Part shown: positions 11,010-51,330 of the stretch, piece by piece
Numbering within the stretch: position 1 is the first letter of the stretch
Layout of the letters: each line of letters opens with the position of its first letter
Assembly: GCA_964447495.1 (NCBI GenBank)
Contig: CAYUTF010000002.1
Coordinates: 32,001 to 96,000, forward strand
From: an uncultured archaeon
GTDB lineage: Archaea > Asgardarchaeota > Lokiarchaeia > Sigyniarchaeales > SOKP01
Length of the DNA: 64,000 nt
Direction: 5' to 3'
Notes under the pieces: generated by a model
Database searches by the model: none
The model's input: the letters and a program-made list of their open reading frames with translations, nothing else
Told to the model about the DNA's origin: nothing
Translations under genes and position numbers: made by a program

Positions 11010-13249
11010 TTAAAGAATCTTTTTTAACTCTAAAATTAGATTTTTGGGATTGACTCTGTCAAATTGATAAATTTCTGCTTTTCCGAAATCTTTAAAATTC
11101 TCCTTTATCTTATTAGCAGCAAAAGTATTTACACCTAATCCTTGAGTGGCATAACTCTTTTTTGGTTCTAACACTACAAGATGAACCCCTTTTTTAGATA
11201 AAGCCTTTGTTAATTCTTTTAATTCATTGATAATCACATTATAATCACTTTGTACTTGGGCAATTAAATCAGGATATTTTACGGAAATGTTTGCACCACA
11301 ATCAGAACAAATAAAAATTACGGGGATTATATTTCTATTCTTTAATTTTTCTGCATTAATTAATTTAAGAGATTTCTTTAATGCTGCAGCCATTGGTGTA
11401 TATGATTTTCCTTCAATATTTTTTACTTTATTGGCAGCATTCTTGAAATAAACCGTTGGTTTTTGAAGAACAACTGCATCTTTTCCTCGAAAAATTATCA
11501 GACTTATTTTGTCCTTCTTTCGATAACCTTCTTTTTGTAAAGATAAAATTACATCTGTCATTTGCTTTATTACATAGTACATCGAAGCAGAGCTGTCTAA
11601 TACAAAAAATAAAACCAATGGTGCACGATATTCGTATATTTTGTCCATTAAATCATACTTATTGAATTTAATGGGAAAATCAATATCAGTTTGATTATAT
11701 ATTGTATTTTTCAAATAATTTCTGATAGTTGCATCTAATGCGATACTTTTGGGGTTATTAATTGGAGTTCGATATGATACGTACCTTCCTTTTTGTGAGG
11801 AAGAAATTTTGATTCTTCTTCCGATTCCTCTTCCACCATAGTTAGAAACTTTCCTTTCTTTTCGAATATTATCCAAAATCGAAGTCATTTTTTTTTCCAT
11901 TTTATAGATTAATGGGAGAGCATCGAAATCATAATCTAAAAAATCAAACAACTCCTCATTAAAGGGAATATCCTTTACTTTCCATCCTCCAGCCGGTGAA
12001 GGACTTCTTTTTTTATTATCATGATATTTTGGTGCCGGTAATTTCTGTTCTTTAGTTTCTGGTACATCAACCTTTTTTGGATCTATTGATTGCCGTTTAA
12101 ATTCTTTCTGAGGGGCATCGTCATATTTCAGAGGACCTTCTGTGTCTTTATTCGGTTTATAGGTATTAGTATCTTCATATGCTTTCTGTATTTTTCCATA
12201 TACCTCAACAATTTTAGCTTTTATCTCTTCCGGAGTCATCTCATAGTGAAGGGATTGAATACGATGTTCAAAAACTAAATCCATAGCTACATTCAAATCA
12301 TCCTCAGCAACCATCTTTCTCCCGTTAAAAGCCGCATGAGCACGGGCACATCTGATAAAGGTAATATCTGCTCTTTGAGAAAAAATACCTAATTCATTAA
12401 CAAGCCTTGATACAAACTCATACACAGTAGAAGGAATTTGAACTTCTTTCATAATTTCACGAGCATTTTTTATTTTTTTCCTTAGCATTTCCTGTTCTTC
12501 TTCATATAATTTATGAAATTCTTTTGGATTATCATCAAATTCTATAACTCGTCTTGAAATTTCTGCTCGTAATTTCGGATCACGAGGTGCTTTGATTTTA
12601 ACTTCCAAACCTAGTCTGTCAGCTATCTGTGGGCGGAGTTCCCCCTTTCCGAATCCTAATTCGCTGTGAATATAGGATCTTCGGGGTTCATACTCCCGAC
12701 CAAGATAAATCGCGAGGGATGAGATACAGAGATTCCTTCTCGTTCTATTATGTTAACACCTGATGCCGCTGAATCCAATAAAACATCTACGATGTGATCT
12801 TGTAATAGATTTATCTCATCTACGTAAAGAATTCCTCTGTGAGCTTTGGCAAGCAATCCAGGATGAAGACTGCGTATACCTTCTGTAAGTACTTTATCAA
12901 TAGACAAAGATCCGCAGACCATATCTTCCGTAACTCCTAAAGGTAAGTCAATTATGCGCATGCTACGCCTTGCCCTTTCCATTGTTCCATCCTTAAGTTT
13001 AACACGACATTCATCACATAATTCATCAATTTCTGCGTTTGGATCACACGAAAACGTACAATCTTTCACCACTTCTATTTCAGGCATCATTTCTGCCAAG
13101 CTTCTAACAGCCGTAGATTTTCCTGTTCCTTGTTGCCCAGTGAGTAATACTCCAGCAATTTGAGGGTCTATAACATTAAGAATTAGACCCATTTTCATTA
13201 TGTCTTGACCGAGTATTGCTGTAAATGGGAAACTATTCCTTTTTACCAT
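11010..13249 (-). CDS. Chelatase-type (ChlI/ChlD-like) AAA+ ATPase fused to vWA; two exons (13249-12679, 12646-11010), 735 aa after removing a 32-nt intron
   Basis: FPFTAILGQ, Walker A GQQGTGKS, Walker B LYVDE, spliced NPEEGELRPQIADRLGL, MIDAS DSSAS; 2240-32=2208 nt=736 codons. Confidence 0.88.
12647..12678 (-). other. Putative 32-nt BHB-type mRNA intron
   Basis: AUCCUAUAUUCACAGCGAAUUAGGAUUCGGAA; central helix CCGA/UCGG, bulges AG^A and AA^A; removal gives CCC GAA GAG GGG GAA CUC (PEEGEL). Confidence 0.82.
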
Positions 13250-13323
13250 AACTTGATGTTAAAAGTTTCATTTTTATTAAAAATTTCCCATTATAACAAA
13301 GTATTAGAGATATTATTACAAAG

Positions 13324-13719
13324 TTAGCAATTTGAATAATATTGCTTGAAGAATTTTATGATAGATAATGCTTCATAACCTTTTTTTGTTAATTCATACT
13401 TCCAAGAAATGTTTTTTTTATCAATTTTTATATAATATTCAGGGTAATCATTTCTATTAAAAAAACTGACTATCGTTCTCGGATTTTTAATATGTAGAGC
13501 ATTGGCTAAGGCCTTGCTAGTTATTGATTCACCTGATTTGGACATTTTATAAATAGTTTTTAAATATTTAACAAAATTATCACTTAATCTTTTAGGTAGT
13601 TTTAAGGGATCTTGAATTAAATTACTCTTATTTACAAATTTAAAATTTTTTTTCACCATATTTTTTTTTAAAGCTTCCCTTTGCTGATTAAAAAGTTTTC
13701 CATTTAATAAGAGTTTCAT
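13324..13719 (-). CDS. Winged-helix protein (DtxR/MarR-like HTH)
   Basis: YLKTIYKM...SKALANALHI...YELTKKGYEAL. Confidence 0.6.
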   Translation of the reverse strand: MKLLLNGKLFNQQREALKKNMVKKNFKFVNKSNLIQDPLKLPKRLSDNFVKYLKTIYKMSKSGESITSKALANALHIKNPRTIVSFFNRNDYPEYYIKIDKKNISWKYELTKKGYEALSIIKFFKQYYSNC

Positions 13720-13796
13720 AGATTCCAGACCTTTACCCTCCGAATTTAATTTCCATTTTTTCGATTATTGTCTTAATTCTATAGTATACTTTCTTC

Positions 13797-14069
13797 TTAT
13801 ATAAGTAATTTCTTTAAATTATTATAAAATGCATCTGCTTCATGGAAGGCATCTTTAAAAGCCTTATTTCGCTTGTATGCTAATGCTTTCTCTATTTTAG
13901 AAGGTAATGATTCCACTTCTGCTCGATCACCAGTTAAAAATAGCCATCGTCCAAAAGTGTCAAACGATTGAGCGAACGTTCGTATTACATCGAAAGGGAT
14001 AGGAACGTCTTTCGCACGAGAAGTCTGAATGAAACTAGCAATCATGCTTCTTAAGCTCCACATCACCAT
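13797..14069 (-). CDS. Hypothetical protein
   Basis: 90 aa ORF with a G-rich SD-like stretch (AGGGGG) upstream. Confidence 0.5.
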   Translation of the reverse strand: MVMWSLRSMIASFIQTSRAKDVPIPFDVIRTFAQSFDTFGRWLFLTGDRAEVESLPSKIEKALAYKRNKAFKDAFHEADAFYNNLKKLLI

Positions 14070-14151
14070 TGCGCCCCCTAAATTTTTATTAAAAGTAGGA
14101 TGGAATAGGAAAAATAAGTAGTTCTATAAACTGGTTTTGATTGTAAGAATG

Positions 14152-14331
14152 CTATGTGGGAAAAGTATCTTCGTGGAATTCATCTTCATTTTCACCCATT
14201 TTCTCATCTTCATCATTTTTTTTATTCCAGTCCTTGTCTTCTTCTTCTGTATTGTCTTCCTCGCGATTTATACTCCTCTCATTCCATTCATCAGTTTTAA
14301 TTTTTCTTTTACCTTTATTTTTTTTCTTCAT
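14152..14331 (-). CDS. Small basic-then-acidic protein, 59 aa (not in ORF track)
   Basis: ATG 14331 to TAG 14152: MKKKNKGKRKIKTDEWNERSINREEDNTEEEDKDW...; explains the low-complexity shadow ORFs on +. Confidence 0.55.
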   Translation of the reverse strand: MKKKNKGKRKIKTDEWNERSINREEDNTEEEDKDWNKKNDEDEKMGENEDEFHEDTFPT

Positions 14332-14613
14332 GATAATATTATCTATTAAGCATTTTTTCCAGTATGTATTTCAAATTTCAATTCATAATTTTAAATATTA
14401 GCGTTTTAAATTATAAAATCTCTAAAAATATTAATTACTCTTATTTAAAGAATGTTGTTCATATGATTTTATTTATTTTTATCTTAACACTTAATAAAGG
14501 CAATAGATCATTCAATTCAAAATGCAAACCAATCTAAGAATTCAAACCTATAAACAAATAATTAATAGTAAGAAATGAAACGTTAAAAAAAAAGCATTTC
14601 GATAAGCTATTTT

Positions 14614-15564
14614 TTAGAATTTTTTAGAAATTTCCATTAATTTTGTGTCTAATTTGGTTACTTCTTCATCCCATTCGGATAAAATAGCCTCCACTTGGGG
14701 AATAATCTCTGTTCTTTCTTTATATTCAAGATAATCCATGAATTCTTTGATATTGGCAATTTTTATATAGGTTTCTGCTACAAACTTTCTAATTTCATGA
14801 ACTTGATTATTTAATACCTCTGGGACTCTGTGAGATTCGCCTTTTCGAACTAATGTTGTCAAATATTCTTCAGTACCAAGTAATAAAGCTTTAAATTTAG
14901 TCAATTTATCTTGTATATATTTCTCGTATGTTTCAAAGAGATTGTCCTTAGGGAAGTAATTTGTCACATCAATTATGAATTTATGAGTTTGATTTACCAG
15001 TTGCTCCATACTTTCGTATCCTTCGATGCGGTAATCTACAGTATGATAAGATGCTTCAATTCCTCGAGATGTATCATCTAAGCTGAATATTTTAAAGCCT
15101 GGATCATTTTTAAGAGGTTTTTCTGGATCTCCTTTCTTATCAGGCATTTCTACTTGACGAATTAACCTTTCAGGGTTAAAAACGAGAGTGAAATACAAAG
15201 GATTGGCCGTTTGATGAAAAGCAAGATGTCTAATATCAATATGACTTAACATCACTTTAAATCCGGGATGTGTATGCCACGCTCCAACTGTGTATAAGCC
15301 CCTTGAAAATGCTTCATCATCAATTAAAGTATATGTAATGTTATCTTCTTCTGACCATTCATATTTATCTATAACAGCATCTTTATCCAATTTTTCATGC
15401 ATAATAGGATAAGATTCTTTTATAATGATATCCTCTTCTTTTTTCTCACCAATAAAAACACCATTTACTTCTAACCACACATCTTTTGAGATTTTTTGAT
15501 TGGCAAATCGTACAGCTGCGGCCACAATCGTTAGATAAACTTTTTTTGGTATAATTACCGTCAT
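14614..15564 (-). CDS. MPN/JAMM metalloprotease-domain protein with helical C-terminus
   Basis: EVNG glutamate and WHTHPGFKVMLSHID (HxHx7Sx2D). Confidence 0.85.
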   Translation of the reverse strand: MTVIIPKKVYLTIVAAAVRFANQKISKDVWLEVNGVFIGEKKEEDIIIKESYPIMHEKLDKDAVIDKYEWSEEDNITYTLIDDEAFSRGLYTVGAWHTHPGFKVMLSHIDIRHLAFHQTANPLYFTLVFNPERLIRQVEMPDKKGDPEKPLKNDPGFKIFSLDDTSRGIEASYHTVDYRIEGYESMEQLVNQTHKFIIDVTNYFPKDNLFETYEKYIQDKLTKFKALLLGTEEYLTTLVRKGESHRVPEVLNNQVHEIRKFVAETYIKIANIKEFMDYLEYKERTEIIPQVEAILSEWDEEVTKLDTKLMEISKKF

Positions 15565-15740
15565 ATTTACATTGTCTAAATACTAATATTATTGATCAAG
15601 TTATACTAATCCATATATTTATGTTTTTTTTTGGGAGAAATATAAAATTATTTAAATTCAAAATTTACCATTATATTATTACTTAAAGTCATATTGAAAC
15701 TGATTCCAATTAAATAATATTGATTAAATTGTGATTAAAA

Positions 15741-16361
15741 GTGAGCGATAAAGGGTTTGAACCATTAAGCAGTCAGTTAGGGATAGCAGGAACGTCTTAT
15801 AGAATTCAATTGGGTCTTATAAATGGACGTTGGGCTTCGCGTTTATTAAAAGGGAATGATGTTATTGATTCTTATGTTTATAAGGACGAGGATGTGCAAG
15901 GCGAATATCCGAATCAAAATATCATAGTAGGATGGGTCTTAAGAACCGTAGCAATTCCTAATATCAACCCCCATCAAGTAATGAAAACAACTCAAGCATT
16001 AGTGAAGCAAGCTATAGAAAAGAAAGAACAAAAGAAAGTTATGGCCCCAATATCAGAAACCAAGGATGTTGAATTGGAAAAGGTACCCGATAGTCAATTG
16101 AAGAGATCACAACCCATGGGATGGGTGAAAGATGAAGGTGTAAAATCAGTACAAGAGCTTGAGGACGAAAAACGTGAAGCTTTTAGAGAAAGGATGAAAT
16201 ACAAACATGTAGAAGAAGAAGCCAAAAGAGTTTCTGCTGTAAAAACTACTCGAGAATTACCTTCAATCCCTAAAATGGGAGGAGTAACTTCAAAAACTTG
16301 TCCAAGTTGTGGCAAAGATTTAGATTGGAAATTTTGCCCCTATTGTGGGGAAAAATTATAA
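15741..16361 (+). CDS. Hypothetical protein with C-terminal zinc ribbon
   Basis: CPSCG...CPYCG. Confidence 0.7.
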   Translation: MSDKGFEPLSSQLGIAGTSYRIQLGLINGRWASRLLKGNDVIDSYVYKDEDVQGEYPNQNIIVGWVLRTVAIPNINPHQVMKTTQALVKQAIEKKEQKKVMAPISETKDVELEKVPDSQLKRSQPMGWVKDEGVKSVQELEDEKREAFRERMKYKHVEEEAKRVSAVKTTRELPSIPKMGGVTSKTCPSCGKDLDWKFCPYCGEKL

Positions 16362-16587
16362 ATCTTATCACTATAACTTGATATCTACGTTTCTATATAA
16401 CAGAAAATTAGTTAAATATTAAATTTTATACTCTTTTCTTACAAAAGAAATTTATCCTTGTTTGCCAAATAGATATTGTAGTTTCTGGTTAAGAGCTTTA
16501 ACAAGTTAGATTCCATAATTGTAATAAGCATTATATCTGTAAGGTTCCAATTAATAGACATCAAAGTAGATTCTAAAAAATTATTAT

Positions 16588-16617
16588 AACTGAATTATTA
16601 GTAACAATAATTCAGTT
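16588..16617. promoter_or_regulatory. Perfect 12-bp inverted repeat upstream of the MPN gene pair
   Basis: AACTGAATTATT-agtaac-AATAATTCAGTT. Confidence 0.45.
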
Positions 16618-16766
16618 CAATATTATCTTTAATTAATATAAACTTAAAACCAAGATGATATAATTATCATAGAAGGATTTTTGATTAGTGTATCAAATTA
16701 AAATGCATATTATAAATGAGTTAAATTAATATATCTTAAAAATTAACTATATCTAAACTTATCAAA

Positions 16767-18272
16767 TTGAGTGATTTAATAATGGGAAAGTTTGTTGATG
16801 AAAGCACTGTGATAGTTAAGCCATTAGCATATTATAAGATGCTGGTACATGTACTTCGATTTGGTTCAAAAGCAAGGGATTTTAGGCAGTTTAGCGAAGT
16901 AATTGGAATGTTGGTGGGACATTTAGAAGGAGATGGAAAAATCAAAAATGTTATCGTGGAAGATGTAGTACCAATTTCACATGGGGGTTCTATAGAAGTC
17001 AAATTTACTGAAGAACAGTTAGGAGCATTCGGTGAGATTGATCTTCAGATATATAATGAGCATGGTATGAAAAATTGGTTCACAGTAGGTTGGTATCATT
17101 CGCATCCGGGCTTAAATATCTTTTTCTCATCAACTGATGTTTTTAATCAACTATTTTGGCAAGATAAAAATCCTAGTGGAGTAGGACTGGTATTCGATCA
17201 TACATATTTAGAGCGTGAAGGAGACATGGGTTTTCGAGCGTTTAGGTTGGATGATCCTTCGAAAAGTCTTAATTCTGAGTATCATGAAGTTAAAGCTATT
17301 GTAGAACCTCCAAAGGATAAGTCATTCTATTCTAATGTAATCACTTTAATTAATAATATTCAATCAAATCAGCCACCTTTATATGAGCTAAATGAAACTA
17401 CAGATCTATTTAGTGAAGTATTTATCCCAGATCAAGAACAATTAGAGATTCGAAAACCTGAATTACATCTTCAGGAATTACTATCTTCATTAAAATCCGG
17501 TATAACTTCCTTTTTAGATTTATCAATGATCCCTCTAATTACGTCTCTTAATGAATGGAGTCAAAGGATTACCAACAAAACATATTATAATAACACACAG
17601 ATGAGAAAAGATTTGGTAAAGTTAAAACAAAATTTAAGTGATAGTCTAAATGATATGCAGAAAACTTTTAATTACACTTTGCAAAATAATTTAAGCAAAT
17701 TAGATGACTACATCTCAGATACATTTGATGAATTTGAAGAGGAACAAGAAAATATTCGGAAAATTTATAGTAATTTTAAAAATCAAATCAATTTAGAAAA
17801 AGACACTTTATTTAATGAAAAATTAAAGTTTTCTGTTGAACAGATTTCTTTCATGTTTGATAATTGTCAGAAATTAATCTCACAAATTGATGAGACTAAT
17901 TCAAATTGTATCCAAATTTTAGAAAAAAATACTCAAATGATAGAAAGTTTATCGAAAATAATAATGCCCTCAGAAAAAAGAATTACTGGTAAATTGGATG
18001 AAAATAAGCAAAAAACTATAGAAAATTTCAAGAAAAAAATAATAAATCTCGACAATAATATAAGTAATTTAGATAAAGAAGCAAAGAAAATTATGTCGAA
18101 CCTCAAGGCAGCTATTTTAGTACTTGAAGGCTCAAAAGACCCTATTTTCAATAAGATTGAAAAATTAGAAAGTGAAAAGAAGAATTTACATACAACAATT
18201 AAGGACTTAAAAACCGATAAACAAGAACTACTGTCTCAAATTAAAGATTTAAAGAAAGGAGGAGGGAAATAA
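16767..18272 (+). CDS. Rpn11/CSN5-like MPN+ (JAMM) protein with long coiled coil
   Basis: KMLVHV, EVIGMLVG, VGWYHSHPGLNIFFSSTD, then ~270 aa heptad-rich region. Confidence 0.88.
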   Translation: MSDLIMGKFVDESTVIVKPLAYYKMLVHVLRFGSKARDFRQFSEVIGMLVGHLEGDGKIKNVIVEDVVPISHGGSIEVKFTEEQLGAFGEIDLQIYNEHGMKNWFTVGWYHSHPGLNIFFSSTDVFNQLFWQDKNPSGVGLVFDHTYLEREGDMGFRAFRLDDPSKSLNSEYHEVKAIVEPPKDKSFYSNVITLINNIQSNQPPLYELNETTDLFSEVFIPDQEQLEIRKPELHLQELLSSLKSGITSFLDLSMIPLITSLNEWSQRITNKTYYNNTQMRKDLVKLKQNLSDSLNDMQKTFNYTLQNNLSKLDDYISDTFDEFEEEQENIRKIYSNFKNQINLEKDTLFNEKLKFSVEQISFMFDNCQKLISQIDETNSNCIQILEKNTQMIESLSKIIMPSEKRITGKLDENKQKTIENFKKKIINLDNNISNLDKEAKKIMSNLKAAILVLEGSKDPIFNKIEKLESEKKNLHTTIKDLKTDKQELLSQIKDLKKGGGK

Positions 18273-19676
18273 ATGCCTAAAGATTCTGCTAATAACTTAG
18301 ATACTGGCTATGAAAATAAAGAAGTAGAAGTCTCAAAAGAGGGAAGAATTACAATTAAATATGATTGTTTTAGAAAGATGATATCTCATATTCTTAGATT
18401 TGCTAATGAATCTGAAGAAATAAGCCAGCAAGCACTTGGTATTTGTGTTGGCGAATATTTAAGTGAAGATAAGAGTTTCATTATCAACGATGCTATTCCA
18501 ATTACGCATGGTGATATTGTAGAACTGGGATTTTCCCAAGAAATTCATGATACTATAGAAACAATTAAATCGCAATATTCAGAAACAAACAATAAAATAA
18601 TAGGGTGGTATCACTCCCATTTAGGATATGGGTTATACTTTTCTAATTCGGATAAAGCAAATAATCAATACTTCCAAAATGACGATAATCCTTATGGATT
18701 TGGGATTGTGATTGAACAAACATTAATATCAGAGGATCAAAATTTTGGAACTGAAATTTTTAGGTTAAAAGATTTTATTAAAGGCTCAGAAAGCGATTAT
18801 GTTAAAGTTCAATTTGAAATTGAATCACCAAATACTTTAAAATACTTTAAATGGGTAAAGGAACTAATTGAATCTGCTCAAAAAAAAAATACTGCAATCA
18901 TTCATGAAGTTGATGAGCTCGTGAAACCTTCTCCTGAAGTACTTCAAGAGATCCCCACATCTCCACAAGATGAGCCTGAATCCACAGAAAAAGAAGGGTT
19001 TTCAATACTATATGGAGTAAAAGATGGTATAGAAAAATTTAAGGATGCTTTTCTTAGTGTTTATGAACAAGAACTGAATATATGGATGAATGATGTTTCT
19101 GAAGATGTATTAAAAGGCTCTGAATATATACGGAGTTCTATAAATAATATTAAAGAAACATTAGCATCAGGTTTAGTGGATGTTCAACGCATCTTTAATA
19201 GAAGTTTTACCGATATTTCAAATCTTTTTATGAAAAATATAAAAACAAGTGTTGACACACGTTTAACCAATCAAATTGAGCTTAAAAATGAAATCGAATC
19301 AAACTTTGAAGAGCAATTAAGTTATCTTTTTGAGAATTTAGAAAAAGAAATACGTGATATCACGAATTTAATTGAAGAAAAAATAACAACTATTAAAAAT
19401 GAATTAGATAAGATCACCCAAAATAATAACGTTATTGAACAGTCATTAAATCAGAATAACGAACTTTTGAATAAAGTTTATCAAGAGTCCGATAAATTAT
19501 CAAATACAATTATTCAACATATCGAAAATTCGACTAAAGCATTTGAATTAAAATTATTTAATGAAATCGAAGATTTCTCATCGAAAATGAATCCAAATAA
19601 AGAAACTTATCGTGAAATCGAAGATTTAATTGAAAGACTTCAAAAAGTAATATCAAGTTTAAGACAAGTAAAATAA
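18273..19676 (+). CDS. MPN-domain protein with coiled coil; catalytic Glu apparently replaced by Gln
   Basis: QALGICVG where paralogues have EVxG; IGWYHSHLGYGLYFSNSD retained; start abuts the upstream stop. Confidence 0.85.
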   Translation: MPKDSANNLDTGYENKEVEVSKEGRITIKYDCFRKMISHILRFANESEEISQQALGICVGEYLSEDKSFIINDAIPITHGDIVELGFSQEIHDTIETIKSQYSETNNKIIGWYHSHLGYGLYFSNSDKANNQYFQNDDNPYGFGIVIEQTLISEDQNFGTEIFRLKDFIKGSESDYVKVQFEIESPNTLKYFKWVKELIESAQKKNTAIIHEVDELVKPSPEVLQEIPTSPQDEPESTEKEGFSILYGVKDGIEKFKDAFLSVYEQELNIWMNDVSEDVLKGSEYIRSSINNIKETLASGLVDVQRIFNRSFTDISNLFMKNIKTSVDTRLTNQIELKNEIESNFEEQLSYLFENLEKEIRDITNLIEEKITTIKNELDKITQNNNVIEQSLNQNNELLNKVYQESDKLSNTIIQHIENSTKAFELKLFNEIEDFSSKMNPNKETYREIEDLIERLQKVISSLRQVK

Positions 19677-19715
19677 ACAAAGCTTTTTTTATATAAAAAG
19701 TACTTTTCCTGTAAA

Positions 19716-20030: not shown

Positions 20031-20161
20031 ATGAGTAGTTAAATACGAATAATAGTGAGTAAAATTATTTTATATCACTTATTTACTAATTTATTTAAGA
20101 AAAAATTCATTTATAATAAGTCAAAGAATTGAATAAAATTAGTGTTGCTTGGATCTAACAA

Positions 20162-24087: not shown

Positions 24088-24108
24088 TATTTATCACCTC
24101 TCACAATT

Positions 24109-27108: not shown

Positions 27109-27268
27109 ATTTAATCACCTTATAAAATAATCCTACTCTAAAAATAGATAATACAATAAAAATAGCTATTGCTTATAATTTGAAATACATCCGAATTATT
27201 TACAAATAATAAGTACTACTAAGGGAGAGATTTCATTTAAAGTATTACTATATTTAAAATAGAGACTC

Positions 27269-27655
27269 TTAGCTCTTATTTTGTTTAGAAAAATATTTCT
27301 GAATTGCATCATGTAAAGCATCAGCTGCTAAATTGCTGCAGTGGAGCTTTATAGGAGGTAATCCGCCCAATGAGTCAGCAACATCATCTCTTGTTATTTT
27401 ATTAGCTTCTTCTAAAGTTTTTCCTTTAGCTAATTCAGTAATCATTGACGATGTAGCTATGGCTGCGGCACAGCCAAATGTTTGAAAGGAAATATCATTA
27501 ATAATTTTCTTTCCTTCCTTCTCTTTGACCTTAATATATATATACATAAGATCTCCGCAAACAGGGTTCCCAAACTCGCCCACAACATCTGCATCCTTCA
27601 TTTCTCCAATATTCCGAGGATTTTTGAAATGATCCAATACTTTATCTGAGTACAA
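27269..27655 (-). CDS. iscU: Fe-S scaffold IscU/NifU-N
   Basis: YSDKVLDHFKNPRN, GNPVCGD, FGCAAA, KLHCSNLA. Confidence 0.92.
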   Translation of the reverse strand: MYSDKVLDHFKNPRNIGEMKDADVVGEFGNPVCGDLMYIYIKVKEKEGKKIINDISFQTFGCAAAIATSSMITELAKGKTLEEANKITRDDVADSLGGLPPIKLHCSNLAADALHDAIQKYFSKQNKS

Positions 27656-31848: not shown

Positions 31849-33295
31849 TCACTCTATGAAAATATTTCTAAATCTATTTATAACTTTTTCAATTATGTTT
31901 TTTAACTTTTTAGGACCAATCTTAATTATAATAAAAAGTGTAATGATTAGGATAACAATAGATAAAGTAATCATTATTCCAATAAGAAACTTGAAGATTA
32001 GAGTATAATATATCGATGCTAGTGTTATCTGATAGAGTGTTGTTATAAAACCTATTTTGAAAAACTGTTTAAAACTGATAGGACGCTTATTTTGTTCAGC
32101 TATTTGGACTACTAATATGTTATCCCCAAGCGGTGTAAGATTATCTCCCCAATTAGCTCCAATAGCTAGACAAAAGAAAAATTGATGTCGCATAGCTGAT
32201 GGGTAGTTATTTGAAATGGTATTTATGACAGGGATTAACAATTTAGTTATAGGAATATTATCAATAGCACTGCTTAAAAATGAAGATATCCAGAGAATAA
32301 TAATGAGTTGAGAAAATATATCTCCTCCAGAGAGATTTGACATTATTTCTCCCAGGAATTGAACAACTCCCAGGATATCAAGAGCTCCAGCAATAATAAA
32401 TATCCCCAAAAGATAGAGGATTAACTCAAAATCTATTTTAGAAATAATTTGTTTTGCTTCAAGTCTACTAATGATTATTAAAAATAATGCCATAATTAAC
32501 GCAATTATATCAGTAGGTAATATTGATGTAGGAATAATAATAAACAAGATAAATACAAGGATTAACGTAAATAGTGATTTTAATAACAACATTTTATTAG
32601 GTACAAAATTCCATACATTAAATTCTCTTAAAATTTTAATACCTTCTTGGGGGATGTCTAGGGATTTCCTAAATATAAAAATAAAGAAGACAAGTGTTAA
32701 ACAAAAATTATTAAAGAAATCGTTCCAACATTCAAAAAGAAATCAATAAATTGAATATCAGCATAAGTACTAATTAATATATTAGGTATAGATGAAATCG
32801 TGAAAAAAGTTCCACCAATATTGACTAAAATTGCTTGAGTTAGTATATAAGCAGAAGGATTTACATTTAAAATACGAGAAACTGTTATTGTCAGAGGGAT
32901 AAGTATAATAACAGTCAGAATGTTGTTTAATATCGCAGAAATAAATATCGTAATTAAACAAAAAATTGACATTAGATAAAGTGGCTTTCCTTTTGATAGT
33001 TTAATTAAGTTTAAAGCGATATATTGAAAAAGCCCTGCTTCATTAGAAATTGCCACAATAAGCATCATGCTTATAATTAAAATAAGGGAGTGAAGATTTA
33101 CAAAACCTTCACTTTCAGTTCCAAATAATAGTTCAATGATTACATTAAAGTTCATTCCTTCTAAGAACGTTCATACAAAATAAACAATAACTGCTCCTGA
33201 TAAAGCTGCTATTGCTCTATTTAATTTTTCTGTGATTATAAGAATTATTACTCCAATGAAACATCCTAAAGCTATAATTATACTAAGAATTTTAT
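31849..33295 (-). pseudogene. Disrupted ArsB/NhaD (SLC13-like) permease
   Basis: continuous permease-like reading (TEKLNRAIAALSGA...NNILT...DNIP...GDN) broken by in-frame TGA at 33171-33173 and a 1-nt frameshift near 32700; no in-frame start seen. Confidence 0.7.
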
Positions 33296-39916: not shown

Positions 39917-39925
39917 TAATCCTTA

Positions 39926-41309: not shown

Positions 41310-41525
41310 CTTTTTATTTAGAATTATAATTTATTGAATTTTAAGATACAACATTATTATACTTTTTTTTTAATTATTATATTTAGTGAACACTACACTA
41401 TAAAAGTTGATCTGTTATAAATTTTCAATTATAAAATAAATTAGAATAAGAATGATAAAATAAACTATTAAAAAATCTAAGAATTATAAATAATAGTAGA
41501 ATATAACTAATTAAAAAGAAGAAAA

Positions 41526-43282: not shown

Positions 43283-43337
43283 TAATATTAAAAATGAGAA
43301 TTAGAGAGGAAAATTAAAATAGAAAAAGTGAAAAAAA

Positions 43338-43856: not shown

Positions 43857-43911
43857 TTCAGTCAAATAGATAAAATGTAGAAGTGAACAATATATAAGTT
43901 TGGAATGATAA

Positions 43912-44556
43912 ATGAAAGAAAATACGAAATACCATGATTATCTTTTCAATGGTAAGATTGTAGTTGATGAAATCCAACCTTGGTTTGAGTTTGGAACCGG
44001 AAAACCGTGGGATGATTCTGAAATACCATGGGTTTTGGATAATAAAGTTCGGAGAGAAATTTTAATAATTCTTTCAGATGGATCTAAAACGCTAAAGGAA
44101 ATACGGGATAAGATACATTTTTCGCCAAAACCATTGTTGATTAATCAAGAAAAATATAATCCTAAGATAAAATATCAGTGGGATGAGGCTACTATTCAGA
44201 ATCATTTAATGAATCTGGAATGGTATAATCTCATTAAAGTTAAAGATAACAAATATGAATTAACCTTTCCGATCTTTAAAAAGAAAGATATGTCCAATTT
44301 AGAGCAATATATATTACAGTTTGCTAATAATTGGATAAAAGTTATTTTAAATACAAAAGAGCATCTGCAGAAAGCTTATGCAAATTCTGATAATTACCCA
44401 GAAATATTAGAAATTTTGATAGATAAAGCAGTTGGAAAACTCTATGAACTTCTAAAAGAACAAAATCTGCTTCCAAATGAACCCAATTTAAAAGCATTAT
44501 GGGCGGAGCAAATAAGAGCTATTAAATTTGAAGAGTGGCTTAAAAAAGCTTTTTAA
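43912..44556 (+). CDS. ArsR-like winged-helix protein
   Basis: LDNKVRREILIIL...IQNHLMNLEWYNLI. Confidence 0.6.
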   Translation: MKENTKYHDYLFNGKIVVDEIQPWFEFGTGKPWDDSEIPWVLDNKVRREILIILSDGSKTLKEIRDKIHFSPKPLLINQEKYNPKIKYQWDEATIQNHLMNLEWYNLIKVKDNKYELTFPIFKKKDMSNLEQYILQFANNWIKVILNTKEHLQKAYANSDNYPEILEILIDKAVGKLYELLKEQNLLPNEPNLKALWAEQIRAIKFEEWLKKAF

Positions 44557-44732
44557 ATTTCACCAATGGGTTCTTTTTCAAATTTTTTTCTTTTTTATAT
44601 TACCTGCATATCACTTAATTTCAAAAGAAAATCTCATATTTTTTTAATATATATATGTGGATATTTCTCTGCTATTATAAGCTTATCCATAGATAATTTT
44701 CATAATATGAAAACCTGTGTAGGAATCAAATC

Positions 44733-44996
44733 ATGATGATTAGTTCGGATCTAAGTGAATCGGAGCCCATTTTAAATTTAAAAGATTTATTTTATGATAT
44801 TGCCGTTTTTGAAGATATTAAACAAAAGATTGAAAATATTCCTAGAAATTCAATAAATGAAAACTTCAAATTGCTTCAACAGATTCAAAACATTCTTCAA
44901 AAGTGCTCTCACCTAACCGATAAACAAAAATTTTTATATTGCGAAAGTCAAAGATATTTTATGAAATTATATTTACGGGATGTTAACAGCCAATAA
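44733..44996 (+). CDS. Hypothetical protein
   Basis: 87 aa ORF, no recognised motif. Confidence 0.4.
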   Translation: MMISSDLSESEPILNLKDLFYDIAVFEDIKQKIENIPRNSINENFKLLQQIQNILQKCSHLTDKQKFLYCESQRYFMKLYLRDVNSQ

Positions 44997-45040
44997 ATAT
45001 GATTATCCTCATTTTATTCCCTAAATTTATTCCTAATGAT

Positions 45041-46741
45041 TTAAAAATAATACTTTCTTACTTCTCTGATTACTAAATTAATCAAATCACTATCTTTCTT
45101 GATAGGATATAAGTTCACTTTTTTAGAGAGGTCCTTAAACTTATTTTTAGGAATTTTAGAGGATCCAATGAAAAACCCAACAACATGATGCCCTTGGTCT
45201 GTTAAAGTTAGGAACAACTTTTTGGAAGCATTCCAATTATAAATTCCAAAATCAGTAATAATAAAGACCAAAACATTATTAGTGGCAATTTTACATTGAT
45301 TAGAAATTGCTTTCAGTGGGAGTTGAGTGCCTCCACCTTGATATCTCAGTAAAGTTTCTTCTGCTAAATGATAATTTGATGTCCAATTGCATGTATCTGC
45401 TATGTTAGAAAAATTAATTACGCTAAATTTTATTGCTTTTTGCGCAGCAAAGTGAAGTGCCGCAAAAGCTGCAATTAATGCAGTATGATAAGTTCCTGTG
45501 GGATGCTTTTTATTATAATTCCAATTCATTGAACCTGAAGAATCAATAACAAGTAAAAGATCTGGTATTTGTACTTCACGAATTATTCCATCATGTTCTC
45601 TCTTTACCCATTTTCGTGTTGTAATATTTGGTATAATAATTGGACTGTTTAGTAGAGTTTGAGTTATATCTAATTCCTCTATAGGATCCCCTAATCGCCA
45701 TGTTTCTGGAAAAATGGGCAATTCTTCTCCCTTTTTCTCTTCATATATTTTAATTTGGATTAAATCTTTAGCTTTTCCTCTATACCATGTAGCTAAAGGA
45801 TTCAAATCTAAGAGAATTCCTGCTTGACTCGCAGGAGCTCCAAATTCTGAATAAGGTGTTTCTTTTGCAAAATCCTCTGCTTTTTGAGTTAAAGTATCCT
45901 TATTATCGGGTTTTAATTTATCAATATTTCTACTTTCGATGGGATTATCCATTATTTCTATAATATCTTCTGGAATTTCAATATACATATTTTCTTCTGC
46001 AGGAGATTTCTTATTAACGAAATTTTTTCTTTTTTTGTGTTTGATGTCGACTAGATTAAATGTTACATTTATTAATGGCTGTAAAATTAAAGCGAGTTTT
46101 GATACTTTTTTCTCCCATAAAGATTCATCTTCAAATTTATTAGAGATAATCTCTTCTGCCCTCTCTGCTAGAAGATTTAATTCATCAGGTATTTTACTCT
46201 TTAGAAGTGTGATTTTTAACAATTTTTCATAAACACAAAAAAGAAATATGGAGAAATCACTCATTCTTTTATGATGAGCTTCTAATATATGATTGTAAGT
46301 GGTTTTAAGTTCCCAAGATATAAGTTTAGGGTGTTTTGCGTATAACTTTGTATCAATAATTAAATCGGAAAACAAATTTACTACGATTGGAGCAAAAGTT
46401 TCATTAATATGTTTCATTGCTGCTTTTAATAACTTAGCATTAGTGAATCCATCATAAGGAATGATCTGATAATGAGATACTTCGTGTAATGTAATAGCAT
46501 AAAAAAAATTAATATAATCGTCATCGTTTAAAAAAACCGGACAATTTGCTAAATTCATTGTAATTTGCCATCTATGAATAGGATCTATATAAAATCCTTC
46601 TCTATTTGAATAATCAAATACGAAATTTGGTTCACTTAAAGGAGGAAAGTAAAATTCAGCAAGAGTTTTATTAAATGCTACTTTGGCAAATGTTATGACT
46701 TTTTTCTCTTTATCGTTTAAGTCTCTATTTTTAGCGCTCAT
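45041..46741 (-). CDS. vWA-domain protein with N-terminal HExxH motif; likely partner of the MoxR-like ATPase
   Basis: HEVSH; LVIDSSGSM (MIDAS), GGGT, IITD. Confidence 0.85.
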   Translation of the reverse strand: MSAKNRDLNDKEKKVITFAKVAFNKTLAEFYFPPLSEPNFVFDYSNREGFYIDPIHRWQITMNLANCPVFLNDDDYINFFYAITLHEVSHYQIIPYDGFTNAKLLKAAMKHINETFAPIVVNLFSDLIIDTKLYAKHPKLISWELKTTYNHILEAHHKRMSDFSIFLFCVYEKLLKITLLKSKIPDELNLLAERAEEIISNKFEDESLWEKKVSKLALILQPLINVTFNLVDIKHKKRKNFVNKKSPAEENMYIEIPEDIIEIMDNPIESRNIDKLKPDNKDTLTQKAEDFAKETPYSEFGAPASQAGILLDLNPLATWYRGKAKDLIQIKIYEEKKGEELPIFPETWRLGDPIEELDITQTLLNSPIIIPNITTRKWVKREHDGIIREVQIPDLLLVIDSSGSMNWNYNKKHPTGTYHTALIAAFAALHFAAQKAIKFSVINFSNIADTCNWTSNYHLAEETLLRYQGGGTQLPLKAISNQCKIATNNVLVFIITDFGIYNWNASKKLFLTLTDQGHHVVGFFIGSSKIPKNKFKDLSKKVNLYPIKKDSDLINLVIREVRKYYF

Positions 46742-47087
46742 CCCTATTAACTGAGTTATATTTATGATATTTTGTAGTTAAATCATTTATTCTTATTATA
46801 AGAGGATATTTATTTTTTTTATTCCTTAGACTTATATAAGCAATAATATAATAATAATTTATAATTACAATAACTCTTAGAACTTTTAAATTTAAAAGGT
46901 TTGCAATAAGATTATCCAATCCAAATTTAATAATAAAAGATTATAGAAAATTTCTCTTTAAGATCACCTATTAAAATTGACATAATAAAAGTAGTAAATA
47001 AGCAATCACTTGAATTTGCCCATTTTGCGAGTATTTGGAAGAAAAAGCCATCCATGGAAATAAAGAATAATAAAATATTGATGTGTT

Positions 47088-47774
47088 TTGGTAATTTTAG
47101 ATATGTCGTATGTTTATATGAAAGCATTGGAAAAAAAGGCGAAAAAATATGATAAAGGAATAAGATTTTTAACGTTAGGACGACTTCCGAAAATCAAAAG
47201 TTATATTTCAGATACTATAGTTCAGAAGAATGATACTATTTTAGATATCGGCATGGGCACGGGAACATTCGCAATTTTATGTGCAAAAAAAGGAGCAAAT
47301 GTTATTGGTATTGACAATTCAGAAAAAATGCTGGAAGTGGCAAAAAAAAATATTGAAGTAAAAAGATTAATGCATAGGATCCAAATCATTAAAATGCCAG
47401 TCATTGAATTAGATCACCAATTTTCTGATAATTCATTTGATAAAATTACTGCTATATTAGCATTTAGTGAACTTTATCAGGACGAGCAAAATTTTTGCTT
47501 GAAACAGATAAATAGAATATTACGCGATGATGGTGAATTTATTTTAGTTGATGAAGTTAAACCTAAAAAAATTTTGAAAAAAATTGCATATCTTATTATT
47601 AGACTACCTTTAGTGTTTATCACATATCTAAAATCTCAATTAACCACTAAATCTTTAAAAAACATTGAAGAGAGACTAAAAAATTATAATTTTTCTTTAA
47701 TTGAAGAAAAATATTTTTTATTAGATACTTTAAAATTATTTAGGTTGAAAAAGAGGATTAACACTGAGATGTGA
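47088..47774 (+). CDS. Class I SAM methyltransferase next to a corrinoid protein (CpaM-like)
   Basis: ILDIGMGTG, GIDNSEKML; stop overlaps the next start. Confidence 0.8.
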   Translation: MVILDMSYVYMKALEKKAKKYDKGIRFLTLGRLPKIKSYISDTIVQKNDTILDIGMGTGTFAILCAKKGANVIGIDNSEKMLEVAKKNIEVKRLMHRIQIIKMPVIELDHQFSDNSFDKITAILAFSELYQDEQNFCLKQINRILRDDGEFILVDEVKPKKILKKIAYLIIRLPLVFITYLKSQLTTKSLKNIEERLKNYNFSLIEEKYFLLDTLKLFRLKKRINTEM

Positions 47775-48871
47775 GAAAAATGAGGATAAAAGATAGAGTA
47801 AAATTATTTTTTAGCTTTTTTTTTAGATGGACTGGTTTCCCTATAGAACCAACCCTTATAAAAGTTGGAAACCCTACAAATGAAAGTCCAGTTCTGCTTA
47901 CATGTAATTTCATTTTAACAGTTAGGCGAGTTTTAAAGGCAATTAAAAAGCTTGACTGCTTTTTATTAATCGCTCCTTCCAAAGGAATTAATGTATGGTG
48001 TGGAGCGTGTGGAGATGATTTTCATACAGATTCAGTCTTATCAATTATAAAAACCAGCGGGATTAACGATGTTGTGTCTAATAGGACTTTAATTTTACCT
48101 CAATTAAGCGCTCCTGGAATAGATCCAACAATTATTAAAAAAAAATCGGGATGGACAGCAATATTTGGACCAGTTTATGCAAAAGATATTCCATCATTTA
48201 TTAATAGTAAACTTAAAAAATCAGAGTCACAAAAAATAGTTAGATTTCCGATTTCTCATAGAGCTGAAATGGCTACATTATATTTCTCTATTTTAATTCT
48301 TTTATTTTCAATTATCTTTTGGATTGTTGCCATTTTTTTATCAATCTTGAATCTAATACTTTATTTAGAGACCGTCTCAATTTTAGCGATTATTATTTAT
48401 GGCTCTATGCTGATTTTACCCAGTATTCCCTTTAAATCTGGAAAAATAATGGTATGGATTTATGAGGGTTTTGTTCTTCTCTTAATAGTACTATTCAATC
48501 TATTCATAATGGTTAGTATTTTTCATCTAATATGGAACATAATCTTTTCTTTTTTAATTTCAATGATTATGGCAGAAGATTTCCATGGGTTAACCCCAAT
48601 TTATAAAAGTGAATTAGGTGAAAAAACTTGGAAGAAAGGTAATGAAAAAATGAGATTTTTATTTGGTGAATACAAATTACAGCCATATGGTCAGATTGCT
48701 ATTATGAGAGATAAATGCATTGGATGTAAAGTATGTTTAGAAGTCTGTCCGAGAAGTTTATATGTATATAATGAAATTGATAAAAAGGTTGATTTAAGAA
48801 CTCCTGAAAAATGCATAAATTGTAATGCTTGCGTTAAAAGATGTTTAGCCCAATGTCTTGAAATAAAGTAA
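47771..48871 (+). CDS. HgcAB-like fusion: corrinoid domain, TM helices, 2x[4Fe-4S] ferredoxin
   Basis: GNPTNESPVLLTCN, GINVWCGACG, LILPQL, FGPVYAKDI; CIGCKVCLEVCP and CINCNACVKRC. Confidence 0.82.
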   Translation: MRKMRIKDRVKLFFSFFFRWTGFPIEPTLIKVGNPTNESPVLLTCNFILTVRRVLKAIKKLDCFLLIAPSKGINVWCGACGDDFHTDSVLSIIKTSGINDVVSNRTLILPQLSAPGIDPTIIKKKSGWTAIFGPVYAKDIPSFINSKLKKSESQKIVRFPISHRAEMATLYFSILILLFSIIFWIVAIFLSILNLILYLETVSILAIIIYGSMLILPSIPFKSGKIMVWIYEGFVLLLIVLFNLFIMVSIFHLIWNIIFSFLISMIMAEDFHGLTPIYKSELGEKTWKKGNEKMRFLFGEYKLQPYGQIAIMRDKCIGCKVCLEVCPRSLYVYNEIDKKVDLRTPEKCINCNACVKRCLAQCLEIK

Positions 48872-48948
48872 GTATTAATGAAATACATTGTCATATGCTC
48901 ACGTTCATAATATATGTTGTATTAATCTAAAATAAAAATGTTCATTCG

Positions 48949-49521
48949 ATGGTTATAATGCCTAATTCAAACAATACAAAAATGAATGATGGGGAATTAC
49001 CACGCTCTGGATCGGTTATGTTTAATTTTCATTTTCAAAATGAAGAGGATAAGAAAAAGGTTTTAAAGCGATGGCAAAAAATAAATAAATATTTAATGAT
49101 TCCATTGTATAGAGTGAAATTGCTACCGTTATTAGGATTTGGGAAAATTTTTTTGATTTTAAAGACAAAAGGAAGGAAAACGGGAAAAATAAGAAGAACT
49201 CCATTAGAATATAGACGATACAACGATACTATTACCATTTTTGCTTCAAGAGGGGAAGATACAATGTGGGTAAAAAATCTGCGTTCACATCCAGAGGATG
49301 TGTCAGTAATGTATGGATTCCATCATTTTAAACCTCAAATAGAATTTATTGAAGATAAAAATCAAAAACTTACAATTATGAAATGGTATGTAAAGAATTT
49401 TGGAAAAGCAGCAAAAATGCTTTTTGGATGGGATCCAAAAAATGATGATCCTGAAACAATTGATTTTACAAAATTAATAAATTTGATATCTATTATCTTA
49501 CTTCATAAAATTAGTAAATGA
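48949..49521 (+). CDS. Deazaflavin (F420)-dependent nitroreductase family (Ddn-like)
   Basis: TKGRKTGKIRRTPL, WVKNLRSHP. Confidence 0.85.
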   Translation: MVIMPNSNNTKMNDGELPRSGSVMFNFHFQNEEDKKKVLKRWQKINKYLMIPLYRVKLLPLLGFGKIFLILKTKGRKTGKIRRTPLEYRRYNDTITIFASRGEDTMWVKNLRSHPEDVSVMYGFHHFKPQIEFIEDKNQKLTIMKWYVKNFGKAAKMLFGWDPKNDDPETIDFTKLINLISIILLHKISK

Positions 49522-49542
49522 ATTATTAAAGTAGTTGAAAAA

Positions 49543-51330
49543 TTATCCTTCTTTTTCAATATATTCTAAATTTTCTAAAAGAGATCTTAACTTTAAGGCA
49601 TTTGCACCTCCAGATACCTGTATATTAACTATTGAATCCTCATCCGTACCAGTAACATTGGTTTCGATTAATACCTTTTCTGCTCGTATCTGTTTTGTTT
49701 GCCGTTTACTTAATGCTTCTTTTAAGGGTTGATCCAAATTTGGAAATTCAGCAGCAATTTCTACCCAGACTTCTTTTTGATGAGAATATTTAAACGTAAA
49801 ATCTGAGACTGTTTGTTTATAAAGTTCTTGATCGCACCAATTAATTAGATAGGCTCTATTAGGAAATTCAAGATCATCAATTAAATTATTCCTAATTTCA
49901 GATAAACTTTTAATATCTCCATTCTTCACAGCGATATCTATTTTTCTAGCTAATTTTGAATACTTTTTTGCTTTTACTGATTTTATAAAAGAGATCAGAT
50001 CAAATTTAACTATTAAATCGTTCATTGCATAATTATCGAGCATTTTTAAATCATTTACTTCTGGAGTTCCATCACGAAAACGAGTAGCTATTTCATAACA
50101 GGGCTTTCGATTAATATATCGTTTCTTAATTTCTTCTAAAACATGTTTAGTAAACTCATATTTATTACCCCAGAATGGTGCTTTCTCCAATTCTCGTGAT
50201 GTATATTTCACGCGATGGGATATTATGTAAGGTGCAATTGTATTTACAATATTAATATCAACTATATTCAAGTTTAATAACCATGCTAAAGCTTTAGAAT
50301 ATCTAAGAAGATCTTTTGCTACTCTTACACTTAGAATGGAATCAATTTTATTGCAAACGCTTTGTTCGGTGTTGAAATGACATCCAGAACACAATCCAGA
50401 ACTGGGTTTGATATTTTCAGAATTCCCCTTATCTACGCGAGCACATAAAGTATATTCTCTTATTATTGCATGAATATAATTATTCACTTCTGTTTCGAAT
50501 TTCATCTTGTTTACATGGTACCAAATTTCCATGAGACCATCAATATGTAAGATTTTAGGTACTTCAATCAATTCATCATATCCAGAATATTTTTCGTCCT
50601 TTCCTGTAAGTATTAATGATAAATCATTACTTGTTGGCATTGAGATAGGAACTGATATTCCAAAACGATCTAGAAACGGTTGAGACAGTTTTCGAATAAT
50701 TTGGAAATCAAATTAAATTTCGAATGTCCCAACATCTTGTGGATTTATAGTAGCATAAAGCGTGTATTTTTCTATAGTATTAATGGCATCGTAATATTTT
50801 ACTTTTCCTTCAGCTAATAAGGATAAAAGAATATCTTGGGCATATGGTGTCAATCTGTTGACCTCATCGATAATTTTCCAAAATCCAGTTACAAATTGCC
50901 TCCAAACGACTACTTCTTCCCCGTCTTTCATTAACTTTCCTAATTTTAAAGTCCCTGTAAGTTTTTCTTCTGTGAGTTGCGGTTAGCCGTTAAACGCTGA
51001 GAGCGATTAACTATGACCCCTTACAATGGAACTTTCAATTTGATCCAATGTCATACCAGTGAACATCCTACCTAATAGTTTAACTAAAGTAGTTTTACCC
51101 CCACCATGTCCTCCAACTAATAACATAGCAGAGTTTGGTACTAGCGCATTTAAAACACACATAGATAAAATTTCAGGCAATGTATTTGTTATAAGCTTCT
51201 TCTTATCCTCATTAAAATATTTAACTTCCAAATTTTTAGAATGAACAAATAATTGATTTGCTTGGATGAGGTTAATAGTGTTCCATACTTTTTTTCTTAA
51301 TGATTCTTCTTCTCCTAATATATTTGACAT
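49543..51330 (-). CDS. MoxR-like AAA+ ATPase; three exons (51330-51013, 50982-50719, 50688-49543), 575 aa after removing two 30-nt introns
   Basis: Walker A GGHGGGKT, spliced RGHPQLTEEKL, Walker B IIDEVNR, spliced NPQDVGTFELSQPFLDRF; all exons in one frame and the only internal stops lie inside the two inserts. Confidence 0.88.
50689..50718 (-). other. Putative 30-nt BHB-type mRNA intron (intron 2 of the MoxR-like gene)
   Basis: AUUUAAUUUGAUUUCCAAAUUAUUCGAAAA; outer helix GUUGGGACA/UGUCUCAAC, central UUCG/CGAA, bulges AA^A and AA^C. Confidence 0.85.
50983..51012 (-). other. Putative 30-nt BHB-type mRNA intron (intron 1 of the MoxR-like gene)
   Basis: AGUUAAUCGCUCUCAGCGUUUAACGGCUAA; central GGUC/GGCU, bulges AU^A and AA^C, inner GUUAA/UUAAC plus CGCU/AGCG. 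Confidence 0.85.

Follow-up and report, generated by a model that had tools for sequence, protein, structure and literature searches.

The cbf5 pre-mRNA of Crenarchaeota contains an intron of the bulge-helix-bulge (BHB) type, and according to the excerpts of a 2009 paper splicing had been confirmed for no other gene (PMC2738675). Excerpts of a 2020 paper likewise name cbf5 as the only BHB intron reported in archaeal mRNA, besides the case in a 5' untranslated region (UTR) described there (PMC7714728). For Asgard archaea, excerpted studies report many non-canonical tRNA introns and a two-subunit tRNA splicing endonuclease, EndA (PMC5829648, PMC11291895, bioRxiv 10.64898/2026.10.13.758758), a type known for accepting relaxed motifs (PMC5829648); in their excerpts, the Asgard papers of 2024 and 2026 treat tRNA introns only (PMC11291895; bioRxiv 10.64898/2026.10.13.758758). 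Full-text literature searches, with subscription journals and supplements outside their reach, returned no report of BHB introns in coding regions of Asgard archaea. Here we analyzed three short hairpin inserts that interrupt two AAA+ ATPase genes in a 64,000-nucleotide (nt) stretch of DNA, hereafter the window, from an uncultured archaeon of the order Sigyniarchaeales (Asgardarchaeota, Lokiarchaeia; assembly GCA_964447495.1, contig CAYUTF010000002.1, positions 32,001 to 96,000). An earlier note on this DNA had read the inserts as BHB introns removed from mRNA by the tRNA splicing machinery. This proposal fits the gaps found in orthologues, the geometry of the inserts, a few compensatory changes, the selection acting on their host genes, the DNA of other samples and the presence of genes for EndA and the ligase RtcB. 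We infer from this evidence that the three inserts are very probably archaeal BHB introns in protein-coding genes, removed by EndA and RtcB.

Inserts in two ATPase genes

The genome bin under study (G000) comprises 3.8 Mb on 223 contigs, with 31% G+C and 7,400 N in all. Gene 1, on the minus strand of the window (11010-13249), encodes, according to Pfam, a protein in which a Mg-chelatase-like AAA+ domain is combined with an AAA lid and a VWA domain. Its first exon (12679-13249, minus strand), delimited from the list of open reading frames (ORFs) and its matches to Pfam Mg_chelatase/AAA_5, starts with the ATG at 13247-13249, encodes the AAA+ P-loop module and terminates in SMNPE and the initial base of the Glu codon that follows. 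The 32-nt insert that follows (12647-12678, minus strand) corresponds to an exact 32-nt gap relative to the orthologues; it alters the frame and thereby brings a TAG in frame at 12656-12658. The second exon (11010-12646, minus strand) resumes with GELRPQIADR, matches Pfam AAA_lid_2 and VWA_2, ends with the stop at 11010-11012 and is 72-91% identical to its orthologues. Our gene-1 set of 103 loci was reduced to 84 distinct sequences, the insert site being covered in 81, and the insert is absent from 74 of these 81. A 32-nt insert was found at the identical site in six sequences, one distant orthologue presents a 30-nt version at the same site, and three others are interrupted 0.5 kb downstream, by a distinct insert of 30 nt.

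Gene 2, also on the minus strand (49543-51330), matches AAA_5/MoxR-like proteins weakly, and its long C-terminal portion belongs to no known family. Exon 1 (51013-51330, minus strand; ATG at 51328-51330) spans the Walker A region and ends in IVRGH, and is followed by insert A (50983-51012, minus strand; 30 nt), which contains two in-frame TAA codons. Exon 2 (50719-50982, minus strand) runs from PQLTEEK to GTFE and forms the core of the AAA_5 domain, as judged from Pfam AAA_5/AAA_3 and from the alignment. After insert B (50689-50718, minus strand; 30 nt, with one in-frame TAA), exon 3 (49543-50688, minus strand) continues from LSQPFLDRF through the stop codon at 49543-49545. Among 19 aligned orthologues, insert A is absent in 17 and insert B in 18, as clean 10-codon gaps with the junctions RGH-PQLTEE (A) and GTFE-LS.PFLDRF (B). 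The earlier note had described three hairpin inserts of 32, 30 and 30 nt with stops in two AAA+ genes; these lengths and coordinates hold, and the comparison with intron-less orthologues that it called for places an exact gap at all three sites.

Gene-2 matches were detected in 29 of the 42 genomes of the genus, with internal stops in four: G000, G041, G042 and G017, the congener that we compared in detail. The insert of G017 occupies site A, is 30 nt long and differs from that of G000 at 5 of 30 bases, and both G041 and G042 possess 30-nt inserts at site B. In five genomes from other families of the same order, a gene-2 orthologue lies 2-4 kb from a gene-1-like AAA+/VWA gene on the opposite strand (G025:C3, G032:C1, G036:C259, G038:C1 and G039:C121); the interval between the two interrupted genes is about 35 kb in the genus of G000. 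The 2-4 kb spacing seen in the other families suggests that the two ATPases work together. A paralogue in G025 for which two stops had been reported has no insert at the gene-1 site.

That the inserts are artefacts of assembly or sequencing is scarcely credible. The bin is indeed split into 223 contigs and its N amount to seventy-four 100-N gaps, some with duplicated flanks, but the window is devoid of N, and orthologous inserts are present in independently assembled genomes. Moreover, contigs from four other samples (X2-X5) contain the gene-2 inserts with 0 differences: insert A is present in contigs of all four and insert B in those of two (X2 and X3), and no joint in these contigs bypasses the gene-2 inserts. 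The insert DNA is thus real. Scaffold gaps of 100 N with about 55 nt of duplicated flanks do split intact genes elsewhere in the genome (C18:~47180-47280, C20:~16900-17010, C24:~3775-3880 and C28:~27220-27325). These four split genes make up a class with 155 extra bases that mimics 155-nt inserts, and we discarded them as introns. We also discarded a membrane-protein gene of the window (~32690-32730, minus strand), whose interruption is a 1-nt frameshift in a T/A-rich run; the gene is a single 497-aa ORF in G017, and the frameshift is either an assembly error or genuine. Two further genes of G000, at C4:~83150 and C43:~12590, seem broken by 1-nt frameshifts relative to G017 (+1 and -1).

BHB geometry and structural conservation

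Under the BHB rule that we used, the end of the exon and the end of the insert form a 4-bp helix, both strands have a 3-nt bulge, and each bulge is cut after its second base. We scored this geometry blindly, with no use of the protein, by trying 5 lengths and about 50 start positions at every site. The geometry proposed in the earlier note scored highest at all three window sites, and cutting after the second bulge nucleotide yielded the junction peptide of the orthologues each time (NPEEGELRPQ in gene 1). The orthologue junction peptide was likewise predicted at 6 further sites outside the window, 5 of which pass the criteria of the census presented below. In the 4-bp register, the central helix is paired at 4 of 4 positions in all three window inserts, and the flanking helices are partly relaxed.

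The three structures differ in detail. The gene-1 insert presents the central helix CCGA:UCGG, the bulges AG^A and AA^A and an inner hairpin of 6+4 bp; its outer helix is just 2 bp long, and the minimum-energy fold reduces the 5' bulge to 2 nt. Insert A combines the central helix GGUC:GGCU, in which two pairs are G-U, with the bulges AU^A and AA^C and an inner hairpin of 5+4 bp. Insert B presents UUCG:CGAA, bulges AA^A and AA^C, a 9-bp outer helix between the exons and a 7-bp inner hairpin. The fold z-scores of the three inserts are -2.0, -0.8 and -4.0, the last being that of insert B. These are the bulges that had been listed for the window. The pattern described for the three inserts, which start with A and end with AA, is not universal: in the wider set we found AG^G and AG^U among gene-1 orthologues, and GG^U/AG^A and AA^U/AU^A elsewhere. 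Across all intron sites found, the first base of the bulge is A in 10 of 11 5' bulges and in 11 of 11 3' bulges, for a base frequency of about 0.34.

The structure of the inserts appears to be conserved between species. Pairing is kept at gene 1 and at site B of gene 2 in 89-94% of cells, relative to 19-58% when the partners are slid along the sequence; for the six 32-nt sequences of gene 1 taken alone, the value is 93.8% against the same 19-58%. The gene-1 insert has experienced one exchange from C-G to U-A and two one-sided compatible changes. In the 30-nt variant of this insert, the central helix is shifted by two bases (CGAA:UUCG) and the reading frame is still restored. Among the three sequences of site B, the central helix is 100% paired, with a change from UUCG:CGAA to UUUG:CAAA, and one A-U pair of the inner helix is exchanged for G-C. 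Covariation at the insert sites appears real but is thin.

Selection on the host genes and the splicing enzymes

We then considered whether the interrupted genes are still maintained. Pairs of insert-bearing orthologues present ratios of nonsynonymous to synonymous substitution rates (dN/dS) of 0.065, 0.097, 0.114 and 0.056, and thus lie within the range of insert-less pairs (0.043 and 0.048). When the inserts are removed, none of the 10 insert-bearing orthologues of gene 1 contains a stop. Strong purifying selection acts on the host genes, and the relaxed selection on exons that the earlier note had named as a sign of pseudogenes was not found (dN/dS of 0.06-0.11 and 0 further stops).

These values make it highly improbable that the genes are pseudogenes, inactivated by small hairpin elements that are never removed, whether these resemble miniature inverted-repeat transposable elements (MITEs) or arose through replication slippage. 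Each insert does introduce a stop or a frameshift, short direct repeats lie beside some of them (e.g., 8 nt at insert B) and their presence is patchy among species, all of which pseudogenes would explain. However, selection of this strength is observed between the insert-bearing orthologues themselves, albeit with saturated synonymous sites in some pairs, and all ten insert-bearing gene-1 sequences are otherwise free of stops. Insert length is exactly conserved and some of the changes are compensatory. MITE-like elements are expected in multiple copies, but no second copy of any insert turned up when the three inserts, flanks included, were compared with the entire genome by BLAST, the remaining matches being due to chance (14-43 nt, E ≥ 0.01). 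Finally, an insert of the same kind interrupts the only close EF-1alpha gene of three congeners (G017, G045 and G018).

G000 encodes two ORFs with an EndA domain (201 aa on contig C196 and 205 aa on contig C3) and one RtcB (561 bits). The catalytic His is presumably kept in only one of the two EndA paralogues, as judged by comparing their sequences with EndA motifs. The two EndA ORFs together with RtcB fit the two-subunit EndA type reported for Asgard archaea. Based on these genes and on the geometry of the inserts, a plausible course of splicing can be outlined. Once transcribed, the end of the upstream exon would base-pair with the end of the insert, giving a helix of 4 bp that has a 3-nt bulge at either side, one on each strand, and is supported by the inner hairpin and by an outer helix between the exons. 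The two-subunit EndA would cut after the second base of each bulge and RtcB would join the exons, which would restore the AAA+ motifs NPEE-GELRPQ, RGH-PQLTEE and GTFE-LSQPFLDRF.

It is improbable, though less so than pseudogenization, that the inserts leave the RNA through another activity, such as a different endonuclease-ligase pair or self-cleavage. Some of the motifs deviate from the canonical BHB, but the cut rule of EndA is followed at 9 of 9 well-supported sites. The inserts also lack the length that a group I or group II ribozyme needs. In addition, the two-subunit EndA is, in the excerpts of the report on it, the very type that accepts relaxed motifs (PMC5829648). Cleavage by EndA and ligation by RtcB thus appear to be the probable route by which these transcripts would be processed.

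Probable introns in other genes

We searched for similar inserts by comparing G000 with 2.16 Mb (57%) of G017. All ORFs of at least 100 aa were used in both directions, and 1330 and 1367 queries had matches of at least 50% identity. Inserts with an in-frame stop numbered 5 in G000, 2 of which pass the test of BHB geometry plus correct product, and 11 in G017, where 4 pass and one nearly does. Of the 4 candidates in G000 that change the frame, 2 pass; G017 had 0 of this type. Overall, 6 of the 16 stop-bearing inserts pass, against 4 of the 116 natural insertions without stops (2/69 and 2/47); those four could be due to chance or represent introns without stops. In a subset defined post hoc (≥7 aa and ≥55% identity), 6 of 9 stop-bearing inserts pass (Fisher P = 3 × 10−6 relative to 4/116). 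The same BHB test, with a search of ±12 nt, is passed by 31 of 404 and 21 of 357 mock coding positions. At this base composition, a stop in each of four independent in-frame introns is an event of about 0.1, an estimate from which we draw no claim.

In G000, the gene-1 insert (32 nt) and insert B (30 nt) were recovered by this census; insert A (30 nt) is common to G017 and was hence not flagged by the comparison. Two more introns were identified in this genome: one of 32 nt in an acetyl-CoA synthetase gene, between YPGYY and YTGDGARR (C50:6743-6774), and one of 30 nt in a hydrogenase-like Oxidored_q6 gene (C76:8696-8725). In G017, the passing inserts interrupt EF-1alpha (C11:167313-167345; 33 nt), an acyl-CoA dehydrogenase gene (C17:23476-23508; 33 nt), an amidohydrolase gene whose exons match positions 1-288 and 303-472 of the Pfam profile (C17:377423-377452; 30 nt) and a low-molecular-weight phosphatase gene, within the CxGNxxRS loop (C17:37247-37267; 21 nt). 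The near-pass lies in an unnamed gene (C19:22763-22792; 30 nt). When the amidohydrolase and phosphatase sites are folded without constraints, the textbook hBHBh' form results, with z = -3.8 in one case (equalled by 0 of 200 shuffles) and z = -2.4 in the other. These results indicate that the intron class is real and that it is not confined to AAA+ genes, in whose mRNAs the earlier note had placed it. The window introns form part of a broader set of mRNA introns of 21-33 nt, which varies between species and extends beyond this genus to at least one of its sister genera. Many introns of the set lie within catalytic motifs (P-loop, CxGN loop, YTGDG and NPEEGE).

The expectation that such introns are common in this genome was borne out in so far as five were found in the part of G000 comparable with 57% of G017. 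It did not hold for their density, which is a handful per genome, far under three per 64 kb, and the three introns of the window represent a local cluster. The density given by the census is a lower bound because introns common to both genomes escape the comparison. Candidates that failed the BHB/product test were rejected in G000 (C121:1199, C46:15197, C4:14313, C1:113373, C50:22144 and C82:8245) and in G017 (C5:15921, C23:72900, C17:307642, C19:97129, C23:35885, C17:199172, C10:14189, C11:418592 and C3:8489); they look like gene boundaries or poor alignments. The tRNA introns called by aragorn were not used as a reference set: among 56 tRNAs it made 15 intron calls, many of them implausible in this AT-rich genome.

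The interrupted EF-1alpha gene

The intron of EF-1alpha in G017 contains two stops and splits the Lys codon of the P-loop. The interrupted gene is the sole close EF-1alpha gene of this genome, and the next match is a paralogue of 32% identity. Across the genus, exactly one EF-1alpha match was found in 38 of the 42 genomes and the 33-nt insert in three genomes (G017, G045 and G018); it is lacking in relatives whose protein is 95-97% identical. EF-1alpha is an essential, single-copy gene, and with two stops in the region of its P-loop the insert is hard to explain unless it is removed. At the level of the class, a match was obtained in 147 of 161 genomes, and that of G113, a member of another genus, presents the same stops and extra length (+33 nt). 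Other stop-bearing length excesses were observed in G119 (+24 nt) and G110 (+30 nt), and G014 also combines stops with extra length. The EF-1alpha matches of G113, G119, G110 and G014 may represent further intron sites.

The position of this and other introns within codons is relevant to the possibility that ribosomes bypass the inserts, or read through them. Programmed bypassing, as in phage T4 gene 60 and the 'byps' of yeast mitochondria, concerns short gaps with a stop and a hairpin in intact genes, and it needs matching take-off and landing codons. The inserts do resemble T4 gene 60 in being short hairpins with a stop near the 5' end. However, we found no matching pair of take-off and landing codons in the right frame at the three window sites or in their orthologues. 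The required junctions fall within codons, G-AG in gene 1 and A-AG in EF-1alpha, and two of the introns are 32 nt long. Bypassing also leaves the exact boundaries unexplained, which the BHB geometry predicts. Read-through, for its part, would add 10 residues to catalytic motifs and leave the frameshift uncorrected. We therefore consider that translation across the inserts has only a very slim chance of being the correct explanation.

Observations that weigh against BHB introns

Several observations weigh against the explanation of the inserts as BHB introns. Some concern their structure. The outer helices of the gene-1 insert and of insert A are weak, and two of the five changes between the G000 and G017 versions of insert A disrupt pairs of its inner helix. 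The minimum-energy fold of insert B has a 6-bp central helix, and in the 4-bp register its inner helix begins only after two U-U mismatches. In two cases, the C76 intron and the downstream insert of gene 1 (site B), just 3 of the 4 positions of the central helix are paired. Pairs changed on both sides number one for gene 1 and two for site B of gene 2, from 6 and 3 sequences, and shuffles attain the observed covariation score in 29 of 500 trials for gene 1 and in 55 of 500 for site B.

The scan of the genome for split genes with BHB-flanked inserts, which the earlier note had recommended, is also unfavorable. We scanned for structure alone, that is for BHB geometry and ORF restoration with frames of at least 80 codons up- and downstream and a length of 14-70 nt. 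This yielded 1118 loci relative to 1113-1136 in controls with shifted partners, and 48 loci relative to 47-61 when filters on bulges and length were imposed; neither is an excess. The lack of excess over controls indicates that BHB geometry alone discriminates poorly in an AT-rich genome. The scan also missed the acetyl-CoA synthetase intron, where the shifted frame is open, and the introns with 3 of 4 central pairs. With no excess and real cases missed, we dropped it as a census method.

The remaining points concern the material. Every genome compared is a metagenome bin, and contigs lose rare variants, such that the population may hold alleles free of inserts. A second copy of EF-1alpha could lie in the 2% of G017 that is missing from its bin. 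Finally, no RNA run containing the window sequence appears among the 24 runs listed.

Gain, loss and possible movement of the proposed introns

The distribution of the gene-1 insert in the gene tree is patchy, and the closest relative of the G000 gene is devoid of it. Such a pattern requires several precise losses or some kind of transfer. Synonymous sites are saturated between G000 and the other insert-bearing copies of gene 1, yet the length of the insert and its 3' half are kept. The 30-nt intron of a distant orthologue (L098) is identical to those of L025 and L026 at about 27 of 30 positions of gene-1 site A, with synonymous sites of the host genes saturated. Either structural constraint or a lateral move of the intron could account for this likeness.

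Overall, species whose host proteins share 97% identity differ in the presence of introns, and intron sequences are sometimes more alike than their host genes. Movement of introns between genomes or alleles, for instance by reversed cleavage and ligation followed by reverse transcription and recombination, would fit both the variable presence and the likeness of the introns. This leads to a broader and rather doubtful proposal: this Asgard family might possess dynamic micro-introns of 21-33 nt that depend on EndA and RtcB, often lie in catalytic motifs, even that of EF-1alpha, and are possibly mobile. On this proposal, the capacity of the tRNA splicing machinery would limit the production of key proteins, and a layer of mRNA splicing by protein enzymes would exist in the closest prokaryotic relatives of eukaryotes.

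Should the introns be spliced, the use of the tRNA machinery on mRNAs would be recurrent in Asgard genomes and would touch central genes such as EF-1alpha and acetyl-CoA synthetase. This bears on the origin of the RtcB-based mRNA splicing of eukaryotes. For the evolution of introns, close species offer numerous gains and losses to study. There is also a consequence for annotation, as interrupted genes get called fragments or pseudogenes and EF-1alpha is a phylogenomic marker that counts in completeness estimates.

Comparison with known systems

The introns of HAC1 and XBP1 are short mRNA introns that IRE1 removes without a spliceosome in a stress-regulated manner, with ligation by RtcB in animals; this type of splicing is mentioned in PMC13149111. 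They resemble the present inserts by analogy only, in that protein enzymes remove an intron from mRNA with no spliceosome; the endonuclease there is the kinase-RNase IRE1 and the motif a twin stem-loop with conserved 7-nt loops, whereas EndA and a BHB are proposed here. None of the present observations favors the expression switch that the earlier note had considered in this connection. Programmed bypassing differs in that the boundaries of our inserts obey rules of RNA structure and lack the matching codons. The BHB introns of archaeal tRNAs and rRNAs, including the non-canonical tRNA introns of Asgard archaea, share with our inserts the motif, the cut rule and presumably the enzymes. In the present case, however, the host is an mRNA, the exon half of the motif consists of codons and the reading frame must survive.

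Two mRNA introns are closer still. HVO_1309 of Haloferax volcanii contains, as excerpts of its description state, an mRNA BHB intron that is a substrate of EndA in vivo and in vitro (PMC7714728); it lies in the 5' UTR of a gene of a euryarchaeon with a different EndA type, whereas our inserts interrupt coding sequence. The cbf5 intron, going by excerpts of the 2009 paper, is likewise a short BHB intron within a protein-coding gene, found in lineages with hetero-oligomeric EndA and gained or lost among relatives (PMC2738675). Its splicing has been shown experimentally, whereas that of the present introns is inferred. The hosts described here are AAA+ ATPases, acetyl-CoA synthetase, EF-1alpha and others, in an Asgard lineage instead of Crenarchaeota, and several such introns occur per genome, with two in one gene.

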